DNA from: Bacteroidota bacterium
GTDB lineage: Bacteria; Bacteroidota; Bacteroidia; Chitinophagales; BACL12
NCBI GenBank assembly: GCA_016706865.1
Contig: JADJIS010000002.1
Coordinates: forward strand, 484,419 to 548,418
Length of the DNA stretch: 64,000 nucleotides
Reading direction: 5' to 3'
The translations under genes and the position numbers were made by a program. Positions within the stretch are counted from its first letter, which is position 1. Each line of letters begins with the position of its first letter. Below are positions 1-63,983 of this stretch, one piece after another. The notes beneath the pieces are model-generated. The model saw only the letters and a list, made by a program, of their open reading frames with translations, was not told the origin of the DNA and did no database searches.

Positions 1-1
1 A

Positions 2-718
2 TCAGAAGATGGAACTCGATTAAATAAATATCTCGCTAATTCAGGTGTTGCGGCGCGCAGAAAATGTGATGAAATAATTGAAAAAGGAGAAGTTACCGTT
101 AATGGAAAAGTAGTGCGCGAAATGGGTTACAAAGTAAAACCCGGCGACTCCGTAAAATATAAAAATAAACCCATTAAACCTGTTAATTACGTTTATATTT
201 TGTTGAATAAACCGAAAGATTATTTAACAACGGTAGATGATGATAAGGGTAGAAATACAGTAATGGAATTAATTTCCAATGCGACTACAGAACGTGTATT
301 TCCTGTTGGAAGATTAGATAGAAATACCACAGGATTATTATTGTTGACCAACGATGGCGACCTCGCACAAAAATTAGCTCATCCTAGTTTTGGAGCTAAA
401 AAGATCTACGAAGTTGAAGTGGATAAACCGGTAACACAAGCTGATATGCAAAAAATTTCTGATGGTGTTATGCTGGAAGATGGATTGGCCATTGTTGACG
501 GAATAGATTACGCACATCATACCCAAAGAAATATTTTAGGTATTTCGTTGCACATCGGAAAAAACAGAATTGTCCGCCGCATATTTGAATCACTTGGTTA
601 TAAAGTTGAGCGTCTCGACAGAACTTTATATGCCGGATTAACAAAACGCGATCTTCCCAGAGGAAGATGGAGATATTTGACGGAACGTGAGATTATTAAG
701 TTGAAGTACCTTAAATAG
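2..718 (+). CDS. pseudouridine synthase, RsuA/RluB family (5' end outside window)
   Basis: Frame 2 is open from the window edge (SEDGTRLNKYLANSGVAARRKCDEIIEKGEVTVNGKVV, an S4 RNA-binding domain). The GTG at 113 in the ORF track is therefore internal. The catalytic motif GRLDRNTTGLLLLTNDG is present. Stop TAG at 716-718. Confidence 0.9.
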   Translation, partial: SEDGTRLNKYLANSGVAARRKCDEIIEKGEVTVNGKVVREMGYKVKPGDSVKYKNKPIKPVNYVYILLNKPKDYLTTVDDDKGRNTVMELISNATTERVFPVGRLDRNTTGLLLLTNDGDLAQKLAHPSFGAKKIYEVEVDKPVTQADMQKISDGVMLEDGLAIVDGIDYAHHTQRNILGISLHIGKNRIVRRIFESLGYKVERLDRTLYAGLTKRDLPRGRWRYLTEREIIKLKYLK

Positions 719-790: not shown

Positions 791-1470
791 GTATCAGGAA
801 TCAAGTATCAGGAAAACAAACAGTGGGATTTGGTAAAATTTCGCAAGAAATTTAAACTCCTTTCTCCTCTCTCCTTTCTCCTTTTTAGTATCGGGTATCA
901 GGAATCAAGTATCAGGAAAACAAACAGTGGGATTTGGTAAAATTTCGCAAGAAATTTAAACTCCTTTCTCCTCTCTCCTTTCTCCTTTTTAGTATCGAGT
1001 ATCAGGAATCAAGTATCAGGAAAACAAACGGTGAGATTTGCAAAAATTTCGCAAGAAAAATCCTTTTTCGAATTAAGAAATAGGACCTAGGAAGTAGGAA
1101 AACAAACGGTGGGATTTGGTAAAATTTCGCAAGAAATTTAAACTCCTTTCTCCTCTCTCCTTTCTCCTTTTTAGTATCAGGTATCAGGAATCAAGTATCA
1201 GGAAAACAAACGATGGGATTTGAAAAAATTTCGCAAGAAAAATCCTTTTTCGAATTAAGAAATAGGACCTAGGAAGTAGGAAAACAAACGGTGGGATTTG
1301 GTAAAATTTCGCCAGAAATTTAAACTCCTTTCTCCTCTCTCCTTTCTCCTTTTTAGTATCAGGTATCAAGAATCAAGTATCAAGAAAACAAACGGTAGAA
1401 TCTGGTAAAATTTCGCAAGAAATTTAAACTCCTCTCTCCTCTCTCCCTCCCTCCTTTTCTTTTATAATAT
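791..1470. repeat. composite tandem array: 7 copies of a hairpin core in alternating 104-bp and 78-bp units
   Basis: The core ggaaaacaaacNgtgggatttggtaaaatttcgcaagaaa starts at about 811, 915, 1019, 1097, 1201, 1279 and 1383, giving spacings of 104, 104, 78, 104, 78 and 104. Each core holds the hairpin AAATTTC-GCAA-GAAATTT. Long units are flanked by the heptamer blocks (GTATCAG/GAATCAA)n and (CTCCTTT/CTCCTCT)n. Confidence 0.9.
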
Positions 1471-1615: not shown

Positions 1616-2146
1616 ATGGAACATAATTTTCATGATGAAGAAAATAACATCAAAAATCTTAGTGGTCAGGAAGCAATTGATTTATTAAAAAAGATTGCAG
1701 AAGGTGCGCGTATTTGTATGTTCACTACCTTTTCCGAAAATCGTCCCCTGCCAAGCAGACCTATGGCACTTCAGGCAGTGGATAATGATGGAACCTTGCA
1801 TTTTTTTAGCGCTGTAAATTCTGATAAGAATGCGCAGATAGTTGCAGATCCTTATGTTCAATTATTTTTCGAAAATTCCAGTGCAAGCGAATATCTGAGC
1901 ATTTATGGCCAGGCAACAATTTCGCACGACAGAGAAAAGATCAAGGAATTATGGACATCCTGGGCAAAAGCATGGTTTCAGGAAGGCCCGGAAGATCCAA
2001 TGCTTACCTTAATTAGCGTCCGACCTGATACAAGCAGTTATTGGGATACCAAACACAATAAAATGGTTTCACTTTTCAAGATAGTTGCATCTATGGTGAG
2101 TGGTAAGGTTATGGATGATGGGGTAGAGGGGAAACTGAATATATGA
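1616..2146 (+). CDS. general stress protein 26 / pyridoxamine 5'-phosphate oxidase-like FMN-binding protein
   Basis: 176 aa. Split-barrel family pattern (ARICMFTT...RPMALQAVDNDGTLHFF...ATISHDREKIKELW) matches the size and layout of GSP26-type proteins. Confidence 0.8.
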   Translation: MEHNFHDEENNIKNLSGQEAIDLLKKIAEGARICMFTTFSENRPLPSRPMALQAVDNDGTLHFFSAVNSDKNAQIVADPYVQLFFENSSASEYLSIYGQATISHDREKIKELWTSWAKAWFQEGPEDPMLTLISVRPDTSSYWDTKHNKMVSLFKIVASMVSGKVMDDGVEGKLNI

Positions 2147-2149
2147 CTG

Positions 2150-2241
2150 GGAAATAGGAAGTAGGACATAGGACACAGGACATAGGACTTGATATAGGAC
2201 AATGTAAAATGATATAGGACGATGTAAAATGATTTATGACG
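2150..2241. repeat. heptanucleotide tract (TAGGACA-type) followed by a 20-bp direct repeat
   Basis: Starts 4 nt after the TGA at 2144-2146 and reads taggaag taggaca taggaca caggaca taggact. It is followed by ataggacaatgtaaaatgat and ataggacgatgtaaaatgat (2194-2233). Confidence 0.85.
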
Positions 2242-2512
2242 GATGTTGTTTGCAATCTTGTGGCTCGGCAGAATTAACAAAAGAATTGAAGTGGATTCTA
2301 AGGATAATTCATGCTGTGGTGTCTCCACAGAGTTACGCGCAGCGAACTCTGTGGATGGGTAGGATAAAAATTAATGTTTATTCAAACTTTGAATTATTGT
2401 GGATTCAGATATTTCATGAAAGTATTTTAGTAAACAATTTTTTGAAATGTTACTGCGTTTTATTTTGTGTAATTAACATATCGTTAAAAGCCCTGAATAT
2501 TAACCCTTCAAC

Positions 2513-3139
2513 ATGAAATTCCTGTTTACAGTATTCTGCTTATTGATGTCTGTAATGCTCATCGACTGCAGAAACCCAACTATAAGTCCTGAAGAAACAA
2601 AACCTGCTGTTAATGTTGATTCCACACGTATAAAGGCAGCTGAAGCACTTGAATATTGTAAATCGAAAAAATTTAATACTGATTTTTGTATTTTGATTGA
2701 TATGAGTTTGCATTCCGGTGTTAAACGCTTTTTTGTTTGGGATTTTACAAAGGATACCATCAGTTACAGTTTTTTGGTGGGTCACGGATGTTGCAACAAT
2801 GCCTGGAGCAGCGATCAATCAAAAGAAGACCCAACCTTCAGTAATGTGGATGGAAGTCATTGCTCCTCCCTTGGAAAATACAAGATAGGGGAAAGAGCTT
2901 ATACTTATTGGGGAGTAAAAACAAAATATGTATTACATGGATTGGAAAGTACCAATAGTAATGCACTTTCCAGATATATCGTCTTCCATTCCTGGGAGGC
3001 AATTTCAGATGTGGAAGTGTATCCAAATGGCACACCTGAAGGCTGGGGCTGTCCTGTGATCTCCAACAACAGTTTCACTACTCTTGACCCAATATTAATG
3101 GCGGTAAAAAAACCTGTGCTTATGTGGATATATAATTAG
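2513..3139 (+). CDS. L,D-transpeptidase catalytic-domain family protein (YkuD_2-like), secreted
   Basis: N-terminal signal/lipoprotein-like peptide (MKFLFTVFCLLMSVMLIDC). The pattern FVWDF...SFLVGHGCC...GSHCSSLGKYKIGE...LHGLESTNSNA...IVFH is typical of this family. Confidence 0.7.
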   Translation: MKFLFTVFCLLMSVMLIDCRNPTISPEETKPAVNVDSTRIKAAEALEYCKSKKFNTDFCILIDMSLHSGVKRFFVWDFTKDTISYSFLVGHGCCNNAWSSDQSKEDPTFSNVDGSHCSSLGKYKIGERAYTYWGVKTKYVLHGLESTNSNALSRYIVFHSWEAISDVEVYPNGTPEGWGCPVISNNSFTTLDPILMAVKKPVLMWIYN

Positions 3140-3142
3140 ATA

Positions 3143-3204
3143 TAGGACACGGGACACGGGACACGAGACACGAGACACGGGACACGAGACACGAGACAAA
3201 AGAC
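3143..3204. repeat. heptanucleotide tandem tract (CGGGACA/CGAGACA, 8 units plus a partial one)
   Basis: Begins 4 nt after the TAG at 3137-3139 and reads taggaca cgggaca cgggaca cgagaca cgagaca cgggaca cgagaca cgagaca aaagac, in perfect 7-nt register. Confidence 0.9.
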
Positions 3205-3317
3205 TTACTTTGATTGTAAATTTATGCTTCTAATTCAAATTATATTTGATTTAATTTAATAGGAGACTTGTATTATTTTATTCTTTAATTTTGAGATCAT
3301 GAATTCAAAATGAAATT

Positions 3318-3998
3318 ATGGAAAATTTGCCAATTTATATTTCAATTTTATTTGGTCTCATCACACTTTTGACGGTGGGATTATTTTATAAGGCAACAAA
3401 CAGATCAATACTTTCTCTAGTAATTTTATTGACTTGGTTGGTTATTCAGGCAGTTATTGCTCTGACAAATTTTTATACTGTTACAGATACAATCCCACCA
3501 CGATTTTTGTTATTGGTAATGCCACCAATACTATTTATCATTCTGCTATTTGCTACCAATAAAGGTCGAATATTTATTGATAGTTTGGATATAAAAGCAT
3601 TAACATTATTGCATATCGTACGAGTACCGGTTGAAATTGTTTTATTCAGGTTATTTATATATATAATGATTCCTGAACTTATGACTTTTGAAGGAAGAAA
3701 TTTTGATGTCATATCAGGAATTAGCGCACCTCTCATTTATTATTTTGGATTTGTGCAAAAACAATTAAGTAATAAAATAATAATAATTTGGAATGTTTTA
3801 TGTTTGATGCTCCTTTTTAATATTGTTATAAATGCAGTATTTTCCGCACCATTTCCTTTTCAAAAGTTTGCATTCGACCAGCCCAATATCGCAATTTTAT
3901 ATTTCCCTTTTAACTGGTTGCCATCTTGTGTTGTGCCCATTGTTTTATTCTCCCATATTGTAGTAATTCGACAATTATTAAAAGTGAAAACTCTTTGA
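3318..3998 (+). CDS. integral membrane protein, unknown function
   Basis: 226 aa with about 6 hydrophobic segments. No family recognised. Confidence 0.6.
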   Translation: MENLPIYISILFGLITLLTVGLFYKATNRSILSLVILLTWLVIQAVIALTNFYTVTDTIPPRFLLLVMPPILFIILLFATNKGRIFIDSLDIKALTLLHIVRVPVEIVLFRLFIYIMIPELMTFEGRNFDVISGISAPLIYYFGFVQKQLSNKIIIIWNVLCLMLLFNIVINAVFSAPFPFQKFAFDQPNIAILYFPFNWLPSCVVPIVLFSHIVVIRQLLKVKTL

Positions 3999-4065
3999 TC
4001 TATAGCAGATATTTCGGTTCTAAAATCATCATTAATTAAAAACGCAAAAAAATCTAAAATAAAAT

Positions 4066-4464
4066 ATGCGAACTTTTACTCTGCGGTTAATGCCGAACGA
4101 CGATCTTAAACTGGGTTTGCAGAAATTTATTGTAGAGAAAAATATTGCAGCCGCTGCCGTAATTACTTGTGTGGGAAGTTTAAAGCAAGTTGCACTGCGA
4201 ATGGCAAATGAAAAAAATGCTACTACATATACCGAAAAATTCGAAATTGTTTCACTGGTTGGAACACTCTCTATTAATGGTTCTCACTTGCATATGGCAA
4301 TTTCCGATCGCAATGGATTGGTGAGGGGAGGACATCTATTAAACGGTTGTTTAATTTTTACCACAGCAGAAATTGTTATAGCAGTTTTTGATGATGTAAC
4401 TTATTTGCGGGAGTTTGACGATGTTACAGGATTTAAGGAATTGGTTGTGAAACCTTTAGATTAA
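4066..4464 (+). CDS. PPC (DUF296) domain protein
   Basis: 132 aa. The pattern RLMPNDDL...AAAVITCVGSL...FEIVSLVGTLS..GSHLHMAISD..G.V.GGHLL...IFTTAEI is typical of PPC/DUF296. Confidence 0.75.
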   Translation: MRTFTLRLMPNDDLKLGLQKFIVEKNIAAAAVITCVGSLKQVALRMANEKNATTYTEKFEIVSLVGTLSINGSHLHMAISDRNGLVRGGHLLNGCLIFTTAEIVIAVFDDVTYLREFDDVTGFKELVVKPLD

Positions 4465-4516: not shown

Positions 4517-5449
4517 ATGACAAGAAATGCTAAATTGATCCTCGAAACTATTGCAGTTTTTCTTTTTAATAGTTGTCTGGCAATATTTATCAGTACTTTA
4601 TCGGTAGCTGCAGGGATCAAAATGACCATATACATTCCTGTGTTATTATTTCAAGGTCTTTGGTTTTATCGGTTTTATATAGTAGGTCATGAAGCTGCAC
4701 ACAAAAAATTATTTCCTTCCAATGCTAAAATAAATGATTTTTGGGGATCTGTTATTTTGATTCCCCTGATGGTGCCCATCACTATTTACAGAAAAATTCA
4801 TTATTTTCACCATGGTTTTAATAGAAAAAATGATCATACTTCTGCATTGGATACCTATGTGATACAAGGCAAACCAACCATGTTAAAAAAACTATATGTT
4901 TATATTCTCTGGTATCTGAGTGTGTTTTTGGGTGGATTTTTTTTACATTCCCTTATTTCGGTAATTTTATTTTTATTCATACCCCCAAAAATTTCGGTTA
5001 AAATTTCCCCCGCATTTAACAACTGGACGCCAAAGGATCAGTTGCGATCAATTGTACTATTTTTATTGGGAGTAGGTTTTCACCTTGCCGTTTTGTTTTT
5101 GTTCGGCAGAACAATTTATTTATATGTTTTAGGATATCCCATGCTTGCTTTTGCCTGGGTATTGTCGCTATTAGTGTATATTTTTCATTATGATACCACC
5201 AAAGGAGATGAAGTAAGATTTAACGTGCGATCTGTAAAACGTATTCCGGTATTTTCCTGGATACTTATGAATTTTAATGAACACGCGACACATCACCAAT
5301 ATCCGAATATCCCCTGGTATGAATTACCCATTAAAAGTAAACCGCTACCGGAAACCTTCGAAACAAAAAATCAAAACACACGAAATTTTTTTAAAGCAAT
5401 TCTCAACCAATTCAAAGGCCCTGTAATAGTATATGAAAAGCAGGATTAG
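4517..5449 (+). CDS. membrane fatty-acid desaturase family protein
   Basis: Three histidine boxes (HEAAH, HYFHH, HATHH) lie between hydrophobic segments. Confidence 0.85.
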   Translation: MTRNAKLILETIAVFLFNSCLAIFISTLSVAAGIKMTIYIPVLLFQGLWFYRFYIVGHEAAHKKLFPSNAKINDFWGSVILIPLMVPITIYRKIHYFHHGFNRKNDHTSALDTYVIQGKPTMLKKLYVYILWYLSVFLGGFFLHSLISVILFLFIPPKISVKISPAFNNWTPKDQLRSIVLFLLGVGFHLAVLFLFGRTIYLYVLGYPMLAFAWVLSLLVYIFHYDTTKGDEVRFNVRSVKRIPVFSWILMNFNEHATHHQYPNIPWYELPIKSKPLPETFETKNQNTRNFFKAILNQFKGPVIVYEKQD

Positions 5450-6852: not shown

Positions 6853-7920
6853 TTATAATTTGCTCACTCCCAAACCCGGTAAATCATTTGGAAACATTAA
6901 TCCATCCTTGAGAATGAATCCTCCCATAAACGTTTTTTCCATAACATCTAAACTACCATCAAGATCAAGGTATTTGGTATTGATACACGAATAAGCTGCA
7001 TGAAGTGCAGCAGTTATACTTATCAAACTTTCGTCATTACAGCCCCAAAATAATTTGCAATCGGATTCATATGCAATCCATTGAATTTTATTTGCAGCTT
7101 GTATACCACCGCATTTCATTAATTTAATATTATAAACGCCGTATGGGCTACCTATTTTTTTAAGATAAATTGCAGAATCTTCATCTATCAACGATTCATC
7201 TGCAACAAGTATTTTTCTAAATTTGTAGGGAATAGCTAATAATTCCTTTTCCATTCCGGTTGGCAAAGGTTGTTCAATTAATTCAATTTTTAATTTTTCT
7301 GCTGCATCCAGAAATTGAAATAATTCTTTAATGTTATAACCTTGATTAGCATCAACTCGAATGCGCATGGAATGTCCAAAAAAATTTGATAATTTCGACA
7401 CACATTCAATATCCTGTTCTATATTTCGACCAGTTTTAATTTTTAAAGCTCTGAAACCCATTCCAAAGTATTCTTTAGCCTCCTCCAGCATTTCTGAGGC
7501 ATCTTTAATTCCAATTGTGATAGAAGTGGGAAGTGGGCCTGTAGTTCGTTTATATATGTCAAGCACGGAAATTCCTGTAAATTTTCCAAACGCATCATGT
7601 AAAGCAATATCAATTGCAGCCTGTGTTCCAGGAAAACCTTTAAAATGAGAAATCACTTCCTCGATAATGATACTAAAATCATTAATGTCTCTTCCAATGA
7701 GTTGCTGAACAAAATCACTTTGTAAATGCAATAATGTCGATAACGGAGTTTCGCCAACAACCTCCACAAATGGATTTGCTGCACCTAATCCAATTATCCC
7801 ATTTTCCAATTCAATTTCCAAATAAACAATTTCCGTGTCGCTAAAGGTCTGATACGAAATTGTATAGGGTTTTGTCAAAGGAATTTTTTCCAGATTGGTC
7901 CTTATTGCTTTGATCTTCAT
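6853..7920 (-). CDS. dipeptide epimerase / N-acyl amino-acid racemase (enolase superfamily)
   Basis: 355 aa with MR/MLE-type layout: capping domain, then KIKTG, RVDANQGY, IEQPL and ADES metal/catalytic motifs. The start overlaps the upstream gene by 4 nt. Confidence 0.85.
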   Translation of the reverse strand: MKIKAIRTNLEKIPLTKPYTISYQTFSDTEIVYLEIELENGIIGLGAANPFVEVVGETPLSTLLHLQSDFVQQLIGRDINDFSIIIEEVISHFKGFPGTQAAIDIALHDAFGKFTGISVLDIYKRTTGPLPTSITIGIKDASEMLEEAKEYFGMGFRALKIKTGRNIEQDIECVSKLSNFFGHSMRIRVDANQGYNIKELFQFLDAAEKLKIELIEQPLPTGMEKELLAIPYKFRKILVADESLIDEDSAIYLKKIGSPYGVYNIKLMKCGGIQAANKIQWIAYESDCKLFWGCNDESLISITAALHAAYSCINTKYLDLDGSLDVMEKTFMGGFILKDGLMFPNDLPGLGVSKL

Positions 7921-9050: not shown

Positions 9051-11585
9051 CTAATCCGCTATCACCCTATCATATTCACCGGTCCTGCTTAAAAACTTTC
9101 CTGGAAATACATTGGTAAATTCTTTATCGCGATAAACCATTTTTCCATTCACCCATACCATTAATATGCCATCAGAAAGCGCTTTTGGATCTTCAATGTT
9201 TGCTTTGTCAATAACAGTTGCGGCATCAAACAAAACAAGATCTGCATAATATCCCGCGGCAATTATTCCACGTTCTTTTATTCCCACATTTTCAGCAGTT
9301 AATGCCGTCATTTTGTTGATACAATTTTCCAGGCTCATAATTTTTTGTTCGCGCACATAATATCCCAAAACCCGGGTAAATGCTCCATAACCTCGCGGAT
9401 GTCCGCCATTTGCTCCATCTGAACAAATATTCGTATGCGCCCAACTTAAAAATGGAATTATATCCGCATCGCTCATCGATTTACCCATGATAGTTTCTAT
9501 TCCATCTTCCTCAGGGTGCAATTTTTCATATTCTTCTGAAGCAGCAACTAAATACAATAAAGTTTGAGCAGCAGTTTCGTTGCGCAGTTTCGCAATTTCG
9601 GAAACCGTTTTTCCAACATATTCCTTATTAGGTTTAAATCGCACCATAACAGAACCTGTTGGATCAAATAAATGTTCCACCGCAAAATTTGCACCTTCTA
9701 TACTCGTGAAATCTTTTTTAGGAAAAAGCACCCGAACAGTGCTGTTCCAAAATGTATAGGGATAACAATCGGCAGTAATATTTATTCCTTCTGCACGTGC
9801 AGATTCTAATTTGGCGATAAGTGCCGGCGCAGTTCCCCAATCATCTTTTAATGCAATTTTAATATGAGAAATTTGAACGGGTAATTTTGCCTGTCGTCCT
9901 ATTTCAATTATTTCGTCGATGGCATCTGCCATGCTAATGTCTTCACTTCTTAAATGGCTGATATATTTTCCATTATATTCTGCGGCAACTTTCGCCAATT
10001 GTATAATTTCATCTCTGTTGGAATAAAATGCTGATTCATATTCTAATCCCGTTGATAAACCGAGAGAACCATTCTTCATTTCAAGCCTTAGAACATCTTT
10101 CATTGTATTTATCTCCTTTTGTGTTGCAGGCCTATTTAATTGGTCTTTGCCCATCACACTTTCACGAAGTGTGGAATGTCCTGTATAAGTTGCATAATTA
10201 ATAGCTGGTGAAAAATAACCTTTCATTGGATTAATATAATAACTATCTCCATCCTGCCCCGCTACAATAGTTGTTATACCCTGACTTAAAGCTGCAAGTG
10301 CATCCGGATGTTCTTTAAACGAACCTTCTAAATGACTATGACTATCGATAAATCCCGGTGCGAGAATTTTACCTCCGCCATCAATAACTTTTTCACCATC
10401 AAATTTTTTGAGATCGCCAACTGCCATTATTTTATCTTCTTCAATTCTTACAGAAGCATTTCGTGCAGGTGATCCTGTACCATCTATAACTTTTACATTT
10501 GTAATTAAAAACGTTTCCGGAATTGTAAATCGTTGTCCGTTAAATATATTTCTTGCAGTATAAGCACCTAAATGATTATCTCCACTACTCAATACAATAA
10601 GAGTGCGGTCGTTTTTAATATCTCTGCAGATCACATTTATAAATCCCGCCCAACCACCTGTATGTGAATATTGTTCGTTTGGTTTATCAATACCCCAACC
10701 AAATCCATAATTATATGTGGAACCATCCTTTAATTTAACAGGTTCAAATGCCTGTTGTAAGGTTTCTTTTTTTACGAGCTTTTCGGTCTTTAAACTTTGT
10801 TCCCATTTATACAGATCTTCTACGGAGGAATAAATATTTCCATCACCGGTAACACCATCTACATTGATCAGATCATTTAATTTCTTTACACCGTTAACTT
10901 CCGAAAATCCATATACATGATTGGTTGGCACTGCAGGCAATAATAAATGATAAACATAAGTGTCATTCAATCCTAACGGAGTCGCAATATTGTTTTTAAA
11001 AAAAATATTTAATGGTTGTTTTGTGATTCGTTCAATTATTGTAGCAAGAAAAACATAATTTGTATTACAATAACTCCAACTCGTTCCGGGAAGAAATTCT
11101 AATCGTGGAGAATAGGTGTTGTACGACTGAATCAATTTTTCATTGTTGAGTGTATCCAAAGTTTCCCGGTGGTTGTTATACAGATCAAAATATTCGGGAA
11201 TGCCTGAGGTATGGGTTAAAAGATTTCTAATTGTGATATCAACATAAGGTAATTCCGGAAGGTATTTTTTTATATTATCATCTAACGTCAGTTTCCCCTC
11301 TTCAGAAAGTATCAAAATACACATTCCGATAAATTGTTTTGAAACTGAAGCGAGGTTAAATGAGGAAGAGGTTTGTAAACTCTCCCCGGTTTTAATATCA
11401 GTCACCCCAAATGCTTTTTTATACAATACTTTGCCCTTAGAGGCATACAGCACCGTCCCGTTAAATCGATCAGTATTGTATAATTGGGTAAGAACACTAT
11501 CGAGTTGGTTTACATATGCGTTTCCCTGAGAAAAGCCTCGGGTAAAAATAAGGGTTAGAATAAATATGGAAAACAATTTTTTCAT
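9051..11585 (-). CDS. fusion protein: serine hydrolase (beta-lactamase/DD-peptidase fold) plus N-acyl-D-amino-acid deacylase (amidohydrolase)
   Basis: 844 aa with a signal peptide. The N-terminal half has SVSK (SxxK), YCN (YxN) and HTG motifs. The C-terminal half has GFIDSHSH and looks D-aminoacylase-like throughout. Confidence 0.8.
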   Translation of the reverse strand: MKKLFSIFILTLIFTRGFSQGNAYVNQLDSVLTQLYNTDRFNGTVLYASKGKVLYKKAFGVTDIKTGESLQTSSSFNLASVSKQFIGMCILILSEEGKLTLDDNIKKYLPELPYVDITIRNLLTHTSGIPEYFDLYNNHRETLDTLNNEKLIQSYNTYSPRLEFLPGTSWSYCNTNYVFLATIIERITKQPLNIFFKNNIATPLGLNDTYVYHLLLPAVPTNHVYGFSEVNGVKKLNDLINVDGVTGDGNIYSSVEDLYKWEQSLKTEKLVKKETLQQAFEPVKLKDGSTYNYGFGWGIDKPNEQYSHTGGWAGFINVICRDIKNDRTLIVLSSGDNHLGAYTARNIFNGQRFTIPETFLITNVKVIDGTGSPARNASVRIEEDKIMAVGDLKKFDGEKVIDGGGKILAPGFIDSHSHLEGSFKEHPDALAALSQGITTIVAGQDGDSYYINPMKGYFSPAINYATYTGHSTLRESVMGKDQLNRPATQKEINTMKDVLRLEMKNGSLGLSTGLEYESAFYSNRDEIIQLAKVAAEYNGKYISHLRSEDISMADAIDEIIEIGRQAKLPVQISHIKIALKDDWGTAPALIAKLESARAEGINITADCYPYTFWNSTVRVLFPKKDFTSIEGANFAVEHLFDPTGSVMVRFKPNKEYVGKTVSEIAKLRNETAAQTLLYLVAASEEYEKLHPEEDGIETIMGKSMSDADIIPFLSWAHTNICSDGANGGHPRGYGAFTRVLGYYVREQKIMSLENCINKMTALTAENVGIKERGIIAAGYYADLVLFDAATVIDKANIEDPKALSDGILMVWVNGKMVYRDKEFTNVFPGKFLSRTGEYDRVIAD

Positions 11586-18283: not shown

Positions 18284-18312
18284 GGATTTAAATTTTTGGA
18301 ATAGTATTAAAA

Positions 18313-41227: not shown

Positions 41228-41418
41228 TATTTATTTAATTAATTTATTATTCCCGACTAGTGTTTGATCTGTTTTTTAAAACACTAAGTTACTGCAAATG
41301 TTAGTATGTTGTTCCTATTTATTTTATTGTACAAGCATCTAAATATAAATGCCTTCCAATATTCCGAAACGTCCTGCAGTTGTCTTTTGTCAGGTCGTTA
41401 CCGCATTTTAGTTTGTCA

Positions 41419-42075
41419 TTAGTAAATGGGGTCAAAACGCACACTTTGATGTGATATTACTTTCCCAGTTTTTGCATCTATATTGACAATTTCACTTTCG
41501 CCATAATCATCATTAAGTTCATTCTTTTTAATCCATAGAGTTTGACTTACCTCCAAAGAAAATGTTTTTGTTTTTTTGTCATAATTTATTGTCGCTTTAA
41601 GCGTGTCAATAGCTGGCTTTAAGTTTTGTCGTTTAGCAATTGTTAACGCCTCGTCTCTGTTGGTTAGTTGGCAACTATCGTTAGTCCAATAAAAGTCAGG
41701 GATAAAGTCAAAGTTGGCCTTTAGTGTCGGTCGTAATAAACTATCAAGGACGAATGATGTATTGCCCTTTATAGAGTCATAAGCTGAACAAGTTGGATAA
41801 GGAATAATTACATTCCAACGTACATCTACTTTTACAAATTTGCCTTTTGTCTTTTTAAATCTATTTAATGTCTCCCAATGCGGTTTTCCAAAAATGTCTC
41901 TGTATTCATAATATGTGTTAGCATCATAAAAGCAATTATTTGAAAAAACAATGTCGCCAATGTAAGTAATTAAAATGCTATCTGATTTAGCTCTAATCTC
42001 CGCAGTCAAATATTTTTGTCCTCAGACTGTTGTCACTGTATAAAACGTCAAAAGAAAAAAAGTCAGTTGTTTCAT
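41419..42075 (-). pseudogene. secreted hypothetical protein interrupted by an in-frame TGA after codon 17
   Basis: The ATG at 42075 encodes MKQLTFFLLTFYTVTTV. A TGA follows at 42024-42022, and the same frame then continues into the 196-aa ORF 41419-42009. Confidence 0.55.
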
Positions 42076-42093
42076 AGTTGTTTGCAATTGCTT

Positions 42094-42222
42094 GTAACGT
42101 TCGTGTAGCAGATTTGCGATAGCGGGGAAGGTAATCGAAAATCTTTAATAAAAATACAAAATTTTAATTATTGAAAACTATTTTAAGGAGTGGTGGTATT
42201 TTCAGAACAATCGGACTTGTTG
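42094..42222 (-). repeat. attC-like intergenic repeat, copy A (diverged)
   Basis: Shares about 70 nt at roughly 85% identity with copy B (CAGATTTGC..GGGGAAGGyAATCGAAAATCwTTAATAAAAATAC). GTAAC at 42094-42098. The distal arm is degenerate and overlaps the stop codon at 42225. Confidence 0.4.
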
Positions 42223-42708: not shown

Positions 42709-43473
42709 CTAATCGTAAAAATTTTCCCAGTTATTAGGCGTAGGATCTGTTAGCTTAAAAATAGTTTTTTCTCTAGCGGTAAGTCCGCTATAATATTTAT
42801 TAAACTGCAATAAATAATCAGCTCCTATCCTGGTTCGCCAAAACAAATCGTGTTTGTTATTGTGCGGGAACTTGTTCCAAGGTGTTTGATGTGTGTATTC
42901 AAGTGGTTTGAAATGTCCAAAATATTTTAGGAAATCTCGAACTTCCATAAGAACAAAACCGAGTAAATTAAGCCCGGGCCAAGCATAAATATTGTCAATA
43001 TCCTTAATGTACTGAGAAAGTCCAATGCCCCATATATTGTCAACGGGACTTGCTTCAATTAATACTCTGTCACCTGTTTTTATTAAATAGTCAGCAAGTT
43101 TTGGATTTTGATTGAACTTGTGAATATTTCCAATCTTTACAATTTCAAATCGTTTGTTATTCCAGGTTTGTTCGTCAAAACCTAAAACTTGTCTGCCCAA
43201 TTCTTTTGCTTCTCCGGGACTTTCAGCCGCCAAAATTTTTTCAAAGTTGGCCTTGTCGTCAAAGAGAAGTGCTTTTTGCGACATCATCCAATGCTCAGTA
43301 GTTTTATAAGTTCTGTTGTCAACTGTGAAGGGACTCTCAAACCATTGACTAAAACAAAATTTGCCGACATCAACATTCAATTTATTGGTATGTCCCCAAA
43401 AGTAAATATACTTCAAAGTGTCTCCTCTTTCAAAGCTGTCAATCAACCATTTTATGTTGTAGTGTTTTGTCAA
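42709..43473 (-). CDS. NADAR (DUF1768/YbiA-like) family protein
   Basis: The pattern FSQWF.SPF.VD...Y.T.EHWMM..KALLF.D......I....SP.EAK.LGR.V.GFD...W......IV..GN..KF.QN..L...L..TG...L.EASP.D.IWGIG is seen. The only in-frame start is a TTG. Confidence 0.75.
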   Translation of the reverse strand: MTKHYNIKWLIDSFERGDTLKYIYFWGHTNKLNVDVGKFCFSQWFESPFTVDNRTYKTTEHWMMSQKALLFDDKANFEKILAAESPGEAKELGRQVLGFDEQTWNNKRFEIVKIGNIHKFNQNPKLADYLIKTGDRVLIEASPVDNIWGIGLSQYIKDIDNIYAWPGLNLLGFVLMEVRDFLKYFGHFKPLEYTHQTPWNKFPHNNKHDLFWRTRIGADYLLQFNKYYSGLTAREKTIFKLTDPTPNNWENFYD

Positions 43474-43526
43474 GTTATAGATTTAATTTTGGATTGGGAG
43501 TGATGTAAAATAAAAGCCAATAATGC

Positions 43527-43647
43527 GCTACAGATTTGCAATTGAGGGGAAGGCAATCGAAAATCATTAATAAAAATACGAAGTTTTGGGTTACCGAAAA
43601 TTATTCGGAGGTGGTCGTCGCCCCGATGGCGCAAATGTGCTGTTAGC
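43527..43647 (-). repeat. attC-like intergenic repeat, copy B
   Basis: On the minus strand it reads GCTAAC-agcac-ATTTGC-gccatc-GGGG ... CCCC-tcaatt-GCAAAT-CTG-TAGC. This is an imperfect palindrome with unpaired bases, starting 20 nt after the stop at 43667. Confidence 0.45.
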
Positions 43648-43666
43648 AGTAGGCTGTTCAGATGGT

Positions 43667-59057: not shown

Positions 59058-59954
59058 ATGCAAAAGATTCTGATAACAGGTGGTTCGGGTTTGATAGGAC
59101 GGCGTTTGACCGAAATTTTAGTGGCGGGAGGTTACCACATAAATTGGTTGAGCAGAAGTAAAAAAACGATACCCGGTGTTACTGTTTTTTTGTGGGATAT
59201 TGATAAGGGATTTTTGGAAGAAAGTGCTTTTAGTGGGGTGGATGTTATTATTCATTTGGCCGGAGAGGGAATTGCCGACGAAAGATGGACAACATCCCGA
59301 AAAAAAATGATCATTGAAAGCAGAACAAAAAGTACGGATCTCCTGATAAAAAAACTACGTGAAATTCCCAATCAGATAAAAACCGTTATTTGCGCATCTG
59401 CGATCGGGTTTTATGAAACTAATGCCAATTCCATAATAAATGAAGAAAATAAGTCGGGAACAGGGTTTCTCAGCGAATCGGTTTCTATATGGGAAAGCAG
59501 CACTAAAAATTTTGAAACTCTACCAATAAAACTCGCCACTATTCGAATTGGAATTGTTTTATCAAAAAAAGGTGGCGCCTATAAAGAATTGATCCAAACA
59601 AAGCCCATGGGAATATTACCCCTTATGGGAAATGGCAAACAAATTTATTCGTGGATTCATATTGACGATGTTTGTGGTATTTTTTTATTCGTTTTGGAAA
59701 ATAAACTTCATGGAATATTTAATGCAGTTGCCCCTAATCAGGTCTCCCAAAAAACAATAATGCAAACAGTAAAAAAGTATTCCAAAGGATTTCAAATAAT
59801 TGTTCCGGTTCCTGCTTTTGGATTAAAATTGATTTTAGGCGAAATGAGCAATGCAGTTTTAAATTCTCAAAAAATAAGCGGCGATAAAATAATTAACGCA
59901 GGTTATAAATTTAAATTCCCGAACATCGAAGATGCGATCAATGATCTGGAATGA
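59058..59954 (+). CDS. TIGR01777 (YfcH-like) NAD-dependent epimerase/dehydratase family protein
   Basis: ILITGGSGLIGRRL Rossmann motif and a C-terminal DUF1731-like GYKFKFPNIEDAINDL. Confidence 0.9.
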   Translation: MQKILITGGSGLIGRRLTEILVAGGYHINWLSRSKKTIPGVTVFLWDIDKGFLEESAFSGVDVIIHLAGEGIADERWTTSRKKMIIESRTKSTDLLIKKLREIPNQIKTVICASAIGFYETNANSIINEENKSGTGFLSESVSIWESSTKNFETLPIKLATIRIGIVLSKKGGAYKELIQTKPMGILPLMGNGKQIYSWIHIDDVCGIFLFVLENKLHGIFNAVAPNQVSQKTIMQTVKKYSKGFQIIVPVPAFGLKLILGEMSNAVLNSQKISGDKIINAGYKFKFPNIEDAINDLE

Positions 59955-60023: not shown

Positions 60024-60183
60024 AACCCAGAACCCAGAACCCAGAACCCAGAACTCAGAACCCAGAACCCAGAACTCAGAACCCAGAACTCAGAACCCAG
60101 AACCCAGAACCCAGAACCCAGAACTCAGAACCCAGAACCCAGAACCCAGAACTCAGAACTCAGAACTCAGAACCCCGAACTCA
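60024..60183. repeat. 22 perfect-register heptamers (AACCCAG x14, AACTCAG x7, AACCCCG x1) plus a partial unit
   Basis: Counted unit by unit from 60024 to 60177 with no indels. The final partial unit aacTCA supplies the complement of the vWA gene's TGA stop codon (60181-60183). Confidence 0.95.
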
Positions 60184-62148: not shown

Positions 62149-62273
62149 AATTAAATATTTTATGGTTATTAAATTGTTTCGGGAGGGAGATGCGAGAGAA
62201 ATAAAAATTCCATAAGATCGGGAATTGTGAGGCGTGAATCCCTTTCATGGAGGCAGAATATTTTTAATCCAGG

Positions 62274-62422
62274 CTAGTGACTTGTGACCTTGGGTGAATA
62301 GTGAATAGAAGTGAGTATGATCCTCTAAGCATTGAAGCTATGGATATAGGCTCTAAACTTTTTTTCCGAGTCGAAGTATACTCACCACTCACTACTCACC
62401 ACTTACCACTCCCCACCTCACG
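62274..62422. repeat. two heptamer-periodic tracts in inverted orientation (xxGTGAx versus xTCACxx)
   Basis: Left arm 62274-62322 reads tagtgac ttgtgac ... tagtgaa tagaagtgagtat. Right arm 62376-62422 reads gtatactcaccactcactactcaccacttaccactccccacctcacg. AGTGAGTAT and ATACTCAC(c) are complementary. Confidence 0.7.
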
Positions 62423-62433
62423 ATTTCGGTGCT

Positions 62434-62462
62434 CAAAAAAAAAGACCCTTTCGGGCCTTTCT
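62434..62462 (-). terminator. intrinsic terminator
   Basis: On the minus strand: AAAGGCCC-GAAA-GGGTCTTT followed by a 9-nt T-run. It lies 22 nt after the stop at 62484. Confidence 0.85.
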
Positions 62463-62483
62463 AAAATATTATTCTTTAATTAA

Positions 62484-63906: not shown

Positions 63907-63983
63907 TAGGACGTAGGACATAGGACGTAGGACGTAGGACATAGGACATAGGACATAGGACATAGGACATAGGACATAGGACT
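63907..63983. repeat. 11 tandem heptamers (TAGGACA/TAGGACG)
   Basis: Counted from 63907 to 63983 in perfect register. Same unit as the tracts at 716 and 2155. Starts 11 nt upstream of the ATG at 63896. Confidence 0.95.

Follow-up and report, generated by a model that had tools for sequence, protein, structure and literature searches.

The Tandem Array Downstream of rluB

The DNA analyzed here is a 64-kb stretch (the window, 34.6% G+C) of contig JADJIS010000002.1 from a Bacteroidota bacterium, in which a 680-bp tandem repeat array lies between an rluB-like pseudouridine synthase gene and a PNPOx-like gene. The array is probably a non-coding, hypervariable, higher-order tandem repeat of a mosaic element specific to a lineage of Chitinophagales, without a dedicated product. 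Coordinates are window positions, and labels of the form L0xx denote retrieved contig loci of the same species, of relatives or of the source genome.

The 3′ part of the rluB-like gene occupies positions 1–718 (+ strand, as do the parts of the array and the downstream gene). Its open reading frame (ORF) encodes S4 and PseudoU_synth_2 domains, and the protein is a 100% match to one recorded as "MAG: Chitinophagales bacterium" (MAG, metagenome-assembled genome). The stop codon TAG (716–718) falls within a heptamer microsatellite of the TAGGACA type (713–777), to which Tandem Repeats Finder (TRF) assigns a period of 7/14. An orphan left arm of the element, GGAAAACAAAATT, follows at 778–790, and then the first block of GTATCAG/GAATCAA heptamers at 791–810. 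The initial annotation, made from the sequence alone, had let the repeat start at position 791; the structure begins earlier, at the rluB stop codon. The 40-nt core that it described is real and was found at 811, 915, 1019, 1097, 1201, and 1279 with at most three mismatches (none expected), with a diverged seventh copy at 1383. The core spacings of 104, 104, 78, 104, 78, and 104 bp and the GTATCAG/GAATCAA blocks, at 791–810 and in each long unit, are also as described there. In support of the left-arm copy at 778–790, the motif GGAAAACAAA is present seven times, every copy within 778–1288, with 0.72 copies expected.

The array is composed of long (L) and short (S) units in the order L L S L S L L, the last being a terminal long unit. 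TRF reports them as a period of 104 (2.6 copies, 96% matches) and a period of 182 (2.8 copies, 95% matches). A long unit runs from a 46-nt core through (CTCCTTT/CTCCTCT)x4 (the CT block) and TTA to a block of GTATCRG/GAATCAA heptamers. In L1 (811–914) these parts are the core (811–856) with its hairpin (836–853), the CT block (857–884), and TTA with the heptamer block (885–914). L2 (915–1018), L3 (1097–1200), and L4 (1279–1382) have their hairpins at 940–957, 1122–1139, and 1304–1321 and their CT blocks at 961–988, 1143–1170, and 1325–1352, respectively; the CT blocks are as the initial annotation described. The terminal unit L5 (1383–1470) is more diverged, with a hairpin at 1408–1425, a degenerate CT block at 1429–1454, and a T-rich tail. 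A short unit consists of a core with an altered 3′ arm, GAAAAATCCTTTTTC, GAATTAAGAAA, and TAGGACC/TAGGAAG heptamers. S1 (1019–1096), whose core has a broken 3′ arm and which has no CT block, contains an alternative hairpin, GTGAGATTT-GCAA-AAATTTCGC, at 1031–1052, and the inverted repeat GAAAAATCCTTTTTC at 1055–1069. The same inverted repeat, noted previously as GAAAAA-TCC-TTTTTC, recurs in S2 (1201–1278) at 1237–1251.

The claim that each core carries a perfect hairpin with a GCAA loop holds in part. The 7-bp hairpin is present in five of the seven cores, and only four of these have the GCAA loop: AAATTTC-GCAA-GAAATTT is exact at 836, 940, 1122, and 1408, while the loop of the hairpin at 1304 is GCCA, which is not a GNRA loop. 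In the two short units the 3′ arm reads GAAAAAT, which removes three of the seven pairs and leaves four contiguous ones. Perfect 7-bp hairpins are common in the window (68, about 1 per kb, against 34–59 in shuffled sequence); the hairpin alone is therefore unremarkable. Its recurrence in the array is a consequence of unit duplication.

The array has no coding potential, as first stated: its ORFs are at most 61 amino acids long and have no Pfam match. A candidate short peptide on the minus strand (TTG..TGA, 12 codons) was rejected on reading the sequence; its stop codon comes from a variable heptamer block and is not conserved at other loci. No tRNAs were found in the array. Like a clustered regularly interspaced short palindromic repeat (CRISPR) locus, the array has a regularly spaced, partly palindromic repeat of 30–40 nt. 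Unlike one, it has no unique spacers, since the inter-core segments are only two sequences (58-nt and 38-nt types), each of them repeated, and no cas genes are nearby, in agreement with the earlier judgement.

Downstream, a 146-bp unique spacer (1471–1615) presumably holds the promoter of the PNPOx-like gene (1616–2146; PF01243/PF16242), which resembles general stress protein 26. The neighborhood encodes ScpB, RluB, PNPOx, YkuD_2, PCC, and a desaturase, and the window proteins include type IX secretion system cargo (Por_Secre_tail), as expected for Bacteroidota. The gene flanking the array was found in at least 55 blocks of public assemblies, and many wastewater and activated-sludge assemblies carry it.

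Copy Number Differences Between Strains

Alleles of the same species were recognized on contigs encoding an identical PNPOx or PCC protein. The seven-core array is identical in four MAG assemblies (GCA_018058405.1, GCA_018062245.1, GCA_018055985.1, and GCA_963852155.1, the last on a 545-kb contig). A six-core allele (LSLSLL) was found in a separate wastewater data set (L056), four-core alleles (LSLL) at L002/L057, L004, L006, and L060, and a three-core allele at L005, with array flanks that are 96–99.9% identical. The alleles differ by whole steps of 104 or 182 bp. With head-to-tail units of these lengths and allelic unit numbers of 7, 6, 4, and 3, the array is a minisatellite, or variable-number tandem repeat (VNTR), by definition, and the hypervariable minisatellite is the one option of the initial annotation that this comparison bears out. 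At least part of the variation would be real, as argued by strain-specific variants such as the 97-nt unit of L002, which has one CT heptamer fewer and is accompanied by private single nucleotide polymorphisms (SNPs).

An array of this kind could also arise through erroneous tandem duplication during assembly of a MAG. Such repeats break or collapse short-read assemblies; the contigs of L008 and L009 break off within the array, and the family members in the Chitinophagales MAG MBR_AS.25 (see below) lie at contig ends. However, an artefact is hardly credible when the identical seven-core structure recurs in four assemblies from two accession series, including the 545-kb contig, and a six-core version is present in an unrelated wastewater data set.

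A Dispersed Family of Mosaic Elements

Beyond what the initial annotation described, the core and its CT block belong to a dispersed element family common to related genomes. The family was scanned for with an exact pattern, in one genome per species, and the pattern itself fixed 16 nt of the hairpin region. The core was located on five contigs of the Bacteroidota MAG GFS_13507 and on three contigs of MBR_AS.25. GFS_13507 is a close relative of the source, with AtpG 96.3% and a metal-ABC permease 96% identical. In both MAGs the copies are single or double and lie between heptamer blocks, with CT heptamers on their 3′ side. The other matches of the scan, which lacked the flanking left arm and CT block, were rejected, and those inspected (L012, L020, L027, and L036) lie in unrelated sequence. 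A scan of metagenomes, run with the hairpin left free so that covariation could show and with C disallowed at core position 11, gave a single chance match (L038). No element copies were found in viral contigs, plasmids, or phages, and an nhmmer profile of the element detected no further copies in the window.

Real copies share a common anatomy, in which a purine-rich heptamer block (TAGGACA, GGGACAC, or GTATCAG type) is followed by GGAAAACAAAC, nGTGGGATTTGG, AAAATTTCGCAAGAAATTTAAACTCC, and CTCCTnn heptamers. In the basic element, which is about 70 nt long, GGAAAACAAAC-nGTGGGATTTGG form the left arm and AAAATTTC-GCAA-GAAATTTAAACTCC the palindromic right half, and the CTCCTnn run completes it. 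An 18-nt palindrome lies inside a 50-nt core, and the copies are intergenic. Every full long-type copy of the core has the CT block with it, in interrupted or truncated form in two cases (L021 and L026a). Apart from the element, the family loci have nothing in common with the window.

The source genome carries the element at three or more loci in the approximately 95 kb examined. A single copy lies between two metal-ABC permease genes (L052 11325–11394). A long form is situated about 6 kb upstream of the window (L048 4678–4800), where a 70-nt insert with a GC-rich imperfect palindrome separates the left arm from the palindromic half; the long form is also present in MBR_AS.25 (L029). Downstream of atpG, GFS_13507 has an element doublet and the source genome only a left-arm fragment.

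The GC-rich imperfect palindrome of the long form, AGTGAGGCTCTCGC-(loop)-GCGAGGGTCTCACT, is common to three genomes, either alone or inserted into the element (L048 4718–4756, L029 4370–4408, and L024 2247–2284 and 2460–2498). Two G.T wobble pairs are kept in four of four copies, and one compensatory change, G:C to A:T, separates L048 from L029. This hints at a strand-specific structure, which would be formed by RNA or by single-stranded DNA.

The lineage is extremely rich in heptamer microsatellites. Within the window they occur at 713–780, 2150–2188, 3146–3198, 60024–60180, 62380–62421, and 63907–63982, with the motifs TAGGACA, GACACGA, AACCCAG (22 copies), ACTCACC, GTATCAG, and CTCCTTT, and L052 has about 15 heptamer blocks in 21 kb. 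The CT-rich block is one heptamer type among many, but it is the one that travels with this core.

Age of the Array and Constancy of the Palindrome

At the rluB locus of relatives the array is absent or partial, which argues for a recent expansion. In L054 (RluB 91% identical), rluB is followed by a TAGGACA block, then by seven heptamers of the GTATCAG type and the left arm GGAAAACAAACGGTGG; beyond these lie unrelated sequence and a different gene. In L039 (RluB 75%) a different core, 95 nt long, forms two tandem units flanked by (GGTCAGG)n and (TCCTTTG)n, an arrangement that shares the heptamer-core-heptamer architecture of the window with no detectable homology. Only an 8-mer repeat follows rluB in L041 (RluB 68%), and no repeat was found 3′ of rluB in the more distant L042, L045, and L047. 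Homology of the L039 core with the window core was considered on the basis of motifs shared by eye (AACAAAC..ATTTGG..ATTTCGAAATTTAA..TCC). An nhmmer profile of eight L039 copies matched nothing in the window at E ≤ 1, and the two cores were treated as analogous only.

The region downstream of rluB is variable in gene content as well, with heptamer blocks at its gene junctions. L041 lacks the five genes that follow the array in the window (1616–4464: PNPOx, a 95-aa ORF, YkuD_2, a 226-aa membrane protein, and PCC), and its rluB is adjoined directly (9291–9377) by the desaturase gene found at 4517–5449 of the window. Other genes lie downstream of rluB in L039, L042, and L054.

The age of one family member can be judged from the permease locus, where the element occupies the same site in the source genome (L052) and in GFS_13507 (L021). 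The palindromic half, GTTTAAATTTCTTGCGAAATTTTT, is identical at 24 of 24 nt between them. Identity falls to 74% in the remaining half of the core and to 71% in the unique spacer next to it, and the two loci have heptamer blocks of different types and numbers (TCCTATG vs. CGTGTCC). At 71% identity, 24 identical positions would be expected with a probability of about 3 × 10−4. The palindromic half has therefore been kept constant amid diverging surroundings, either by selection or by gene conversion among copies. This constancy, between copies as well as between species, makes a role as recognition site most likely, with the machinery that copies the element or a DNA-binding host protein as candidates for what recognizes it.

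Among 16 distinct copies the seven hairpin pairs are invariant, no pair being changed on both sides, and the loop is GCCA in two. Here the further copies that the initial annotation had looked to in related genomes were obtained, and the covariation was not. The lack of covariation is weak evidence because the search pattern fixed 16 nt of the hairpin region; the three stem positions left unfixed and the following TAAAC are likewise constant among the 16 copies. An extended outer helix (GGGATTT/AAACTCC) was rejected, as it is broken in 4–6 of the 16 copies without compensation.

RNA-Based Explanations

Signals of an RNA gene were searched for throughout the array. The Bacteroidetes −7 motif TAnnTTTG is absent from both strands between 600 and 1700. 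Sigma-70-like and terminator-like matches in the array are no commoner than in shuffled sequences and do not recur with the repeat unit. The array contains no intrinsic terminator, the stem of the element having a single G-C pair; classical terminators do occur in other parts of the window, such as those near 18310 and 62430. Rfam gave no match at gathering scores, and sub-threshold matches to CsrB, DPB, and Ocean-VII were dismissed. The long unit folds no better than shuffled sequences (z = +1.0 and +0.6 for the two strands). The short unit folds somewhat better (z = −2.4) by way of a different hairpin, GUGAGAUUU-GCAA-AAAUUUCGC. Pairing of the left and right heptamer blocks as a long stem, seen in L039 (211–360, z = −5.5) and L033 (z = −2.3), was rejected as a family rule, being absent in the long units of the window and in L024, L029, and L034. 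Judged by these sequence signals, the array probably makes no dedicated product, and any transcription of it would be read-through from rluB.

These results bear directly on two further options of the initial annotation, a tandem small-RNA array and a decoy or sponge. Under such a model the array would encode trans-acting RNAs, either as a series of small RNAs with GNRA hairpins or as an anti-SD mimic (+ strand) or SD sponge (− strand, AAAGGAG) directed at ribosomes or at mRNAs with a Shine-Dalgarno (SD) sequence such as rpsU. The resemblance of the CT block to the 16S rRNA 3′ tail is genuine: the 9 nt of CUCCUUUCU are identical to the end of the tail oligonucleotide ACCUCCUUUCU (PMC7797042), the comparison having been made with that oligonucleotide. 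The constant company of the CT block and the core in full long-type copies would also fit, as would a CsrB-like match in the AGGA-rich heptamers, weak at 16.9 bits (E = 0.024) where the gathering score is 71. However, neither promoter-like nor terminator-like sites stand in or between the units, no Rfam family reaches threshold, the long unit lacks a fold better than shuffles on either strand, and covariation, outer helix, and loop all fail to indicate a conserved RNA structure. Moreover, the array is absent from the relative with 91% RluB identity, and family members occur in both orientations relative to neighboring genes. Bacteroidia ribosomes sequester the anti-SD and ignore SD sequences, which makes an SD or anti-SD sponge less plausible (PMC7797042). 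Since heptamer blocks are a genome-wide feature, the anti-SD likeness of the CT block characterizes the whole family rather than this locus. Trans-acting RNAs are thus a very improbable explanation, and neither the small-RNA array nor the decoy is upheld.

A role in cis is somewhat less improbable, though still unlikely. The array would then serve, within transcripts reading through from rluB, as a multi-site terminator, an insulator, or a 3′ untranslated region, the mRNA after the rluB stop codon consisting of purine-rich heptamers, the small hairpin, and C/U-rich tracts. No intrinsic terminator separates rluB from the array, and the + strand has five G-free tracts of 40–51 nt. These C/U tracts, some 40 nt long, could load Rho or proteins of the cold-shock or S1 type, with one oligonucleotide-binding (OB) fold per heptamer. 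They are, however, shorter than typical rut sites. Heptamer blocks lie at, or within 10 nt of, co-oriented stop codons at 713, 2150, and 3146, and after atpG in L033 and L048. In L033 the element pair stands between the atpG stop codon and a terminator-like hairpin recognized by eye, so it is probably transcribed there. Binding by cold-shock proteins, S1, or Csr has been proposed for heptamer repeats (MacGregor 2015, PMC4679880).

The positions of the copies speak against such a role. Copies are found 3′ of co-oriented genes (window, L026, L017, L033, and L048), between convergent genes (L017 and L033), upstream of a gene (L034), and antisense between same-strand genes (L052 with its ortholog L021, and L024), one of the latter inside a transporter operon. 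Where the neighboring genes share a strand, three loci are sense (window, L048, and L026) and two antisense (L052/L021 and L024), and at the latter two of these five the mRNA would read AAAGGAG and not CUCCUUU. Orientation is thus without bias, in a small sample, which argues against a strand-specific RNA role in cis. Further, the other heptamer-core-heptamer module of the window (62230–62425) sits beyond an intrinsic terminator.

Comparison with Known Repeats and the Question of Mobility

By analogy, the array and its family appear most like the modular intergenic repeats with iterated modules, namely bacterial interspersed mosaic elements (BIMEs), Neisseria intergenic mosaic elements (NIMEs), and BOX elements, together with VNTR loci. 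NIMEs, in which dRS3 repeats separate RS units, and the BOX elements of pneumococci (boxA-boxB(n)-boxC) are lineage-specific, non-coding, and modular, and their iterated modules vary in number between strains and loci. They have fixed short inverted or terminal modules, and BOX folds stably. The element described here is likewise lineage-specific, non-coding, and modular, with a variable number of modules; it differs in its unrelated sequence, in having variable 7-nt microsatellites as modules, and in a long unit without a stable fold. VNTR or minisatellite loci used in multiple-locus VNTR analysis (MLVA) are intergenic tandem units of tens to about 100 bp whose alleles differ by whole units. 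Unlike an ordinary VNTR, the array has two unit types in a 104/182-bp higher-order repeat, and its unit belongs to a dispersed family. The element does not match miniature inverted-repeat transposable elements (MITEs): the ends of the element, GGAAAACAAAC and ...AAACTCC(CTCCTTT)n, are not inverted repeats, and it is flanked by different heptamer runs with no target-site duplications.

Repetitive extragenic palindromic (REP) sequences and BIMEs of Enterobacteria and Pseudomonas are short palindromic intergenic units with many dispersed copies, which form composite tandem clusters of variable length with linkers (PMC2817692). The element resembles them in bearing a palindrome, in being intergenic and dispersed, and in clustering locally with linker modules. 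The REPs of BIMEs alternate in orientation within clusters (PMC2817692), whereas every array copy here is direct, the linkers are heptamer microsatellites, and the stem is AT-rich and weak. In addition, the GTAG/CGTC tag of REPs is missing, GGTA/GCAA standing before the stem and AAAC after it.

A further possibility is that of a non-autonomous mobile element of the REP or REPIN (REP doublet forming a hairpin) type, or of a palindrome-associated transposable element (PATE) derived from IS200/IS605. The array would be a BIME-like cluster, with the hairpin recognized as single-stranded DNA by a Y1/HUH transposase encoded elsewhere. Elements transposed by Y1 enzymes (IS200/IS605) are expected to have neither terminal inverted repeats nor target duplications, and the lack of both here fits. 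The element is small, bears a hairpin, is strictly intergenic, and is dispersed and clustering; its hairpin half is invariant, its long form contains an extra GC-rich imperfect palindrome, and close relatives differ in its presence, as in the doublet downstream of atpG in GFS_13507. On the other hand, the seven array copies and all doublets (L026, L029, and L033) are direct, not alternating as in BIMEs and REPINs (PMC2817692), and no GTAG/CGTC tag adjoins the stem (cf. PMC3733652). The annotated loci, about 150 kb in total, showed no transposase gene. REP-associated tyrosine transposases (RAYTs; Y1 transposases) were not found among the genes called at these loci or among 10 window proteins scanned. 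Moreover, the copy between permease genes occupies the same site in two species and has not been recently mobile. Taken together, a mobile element of this type is doubtful.

A further comparison concerns the heptamers themselves. Heptamer repeats, including the short tandemly repeated repetitive (STRR) sequences of cyanobacteria and the TAACTGA repeats of Beggiatoaceae, cyanobacteria, and some Bacteroidetes, are intergenic, with several motifs per genome and a function described as unknown (PMC4679880). They are often near start or stop codons, and their copy number shifts between relatives; the same paper also cites Mrazek 2007 on intergenic heptamer repeats (PMC4679880). With tandem 7-nt intergenic units and several motifs per genome, the runs seen here fall within the definition of heptanucleotide simple sequence repeats resembling STRRs and long simple sequence repeats (LSSRs). 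Unlike the plain runs reported, they bracket a conserved non-repetitive core, and the whole module is dispersed and tandemly amplified.

Origin of the Array

The favored reading of the array, as a tandemly amplified mosaic element, would account for its structure as follows. Two adjacent variants of an interspersed mosaic element, now the long and short units, would have been multiplied locally in 104- and 182-bp steps, probably by unequal recombination or replication slippage between the repeated modules. The same processes may account for the gain and loss of whole units and of single heptamers by which strains differ today.

Several points weigh against this reading. The family census behind it covers approximately 95 kb of the source genome, along with an exact pattern that fixes 16 nt of the hairpin region. 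At the loci covered there was no sign of terminal inverted repeats, of target duplications, or of a transposase that could account for the supposed dispersal. The invariant 24-nt half and the constant association with CT heptamers show a constraint that is unexpected of a purely neutral minisatellite. Lastly, collapse of a 680-bp repeat in short-read assemblies could explain part of the copy-number differences; what speaks for real alleles is confined to strain-specific SNPs and to the 97-nt unit of L002/L006.

A more speculative extension, to which only a low probability is given, is that the family represents a class of interspersed elements not described before, in which a palindromic core is obligatorily placed between fast-evolving heptamer runs, the 5′ run being purine-rich and the 3′ run CT-rich (anti-SD-like). 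That a conserved core should always be enclosed by variable heptamer runs is unusual, and no description of such elements was found in the literature on Chitinophagales. The second family with the same architecture in L039, which has no detectable sequence relationship to the first, suggests a specific mechanism that makes or uses heptamer blocks. One candidate is a single-stranded-DNA enzyme by which heptamer runs would be targeted or extended, and a second is a protein that binds heptamers, with one OB fold per repeat and a genome-wide role in the organization of transcripts or of the nucleoid. If the elements do form such a class, the rluB array would be an extreme multi-site instance of it.

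Whichever origin applies, the array is a VNTR marker for tracking strains of an abundant activated-sludge Chitinophagales population, and it accounts for contig breaks in short-read MAGs of the lineage. Such repeats also touch on genome plasticity, as the five-gene block missing in L041 is bounded by them. Finally, an invariant 24-nt palindrome amid about 30% divergence provides a defined test sequence for the long-standing question of whether a selfish, a structural, or a regulatory nature should be ascribed to the heptamer repeats of bacteria and to mosaic elements.

Other Repeats in the Window and in Related Genomes

The longest heptamer microsatellite of the window consists of 22 tandem AACCCAG/AACTCAG copies (60024–60180) and nearly fills the space between an epimerase-like gene and a VWA/YfbK-like gene, which are convergent and end at 59954 and 60181, respectively. 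The second heptamer-core-heptamer module (62230–62425) has a different core and folds, as a module, with z = −2.0. Its heptamers, (GGTGAAT/AGTGAAT) and (ACTCACC)n, are mutual reverse complements flanking about 63 nt, and it lies just beyond the intrinsic terminator at ~62430–62465. Further blocks at 2150–2246, 3146–3198, and 63907–63982 comprise GGACATA, the 20-mer TGATATAGGACGATGTAAAA in 2.8 copies, GACACGA, and TAGGACA in 11 copies; they are found directly 3′ of stop codons or 10 nt upstream of a start codon.

Similar arrangements were observed in related genomes. L039, from a Chitinophagales MAG, contains at least eight copies of its 95-nt core in 10.5 kb (1–500, 3120–3760, and 7078–7460), between G-rich and C/T-rich heptamer blocks. 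Other modules of this locus consist of about 30 nt enclosed by a heptamer block on one side and the reverse complement of that block on the other, such as (ACTCATC)n...(AATGAGT)n. In L041 (1115–1512), 2.6 copies of a 151-nt unit separate atpH from atpA in the ATP synthase operon; the unit contains AATTTCGAAAT palindromes and AATCCGC heptamers.

In the source genome, about 6.5 kb upstream of the window (L048 4105–4308), the interval separating atpG from a Por_Secre_tail gene contains 3.7 copies of a 54-nt unit, each having a AACCCCGGGTAGGGGTG hairpin after an A-run. The 1.35-kb intergenic region in which this repeat lies is packed with repeats and also holds the palindrome CCTGCCTGAC..GGCAGGCAGG, which is found in L039 too. 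Within the window, a 57-nt direct repeat (42109–42165 and 43531–43587, 88% identical) stands upstream of two minus-strand genes. The stretches at ~41230–42220 and 43290–43660, next to a NADAR-domain gene, have no long ATG-initiated ORFs and may represent pseudogenes or a duplicated regulatory region.

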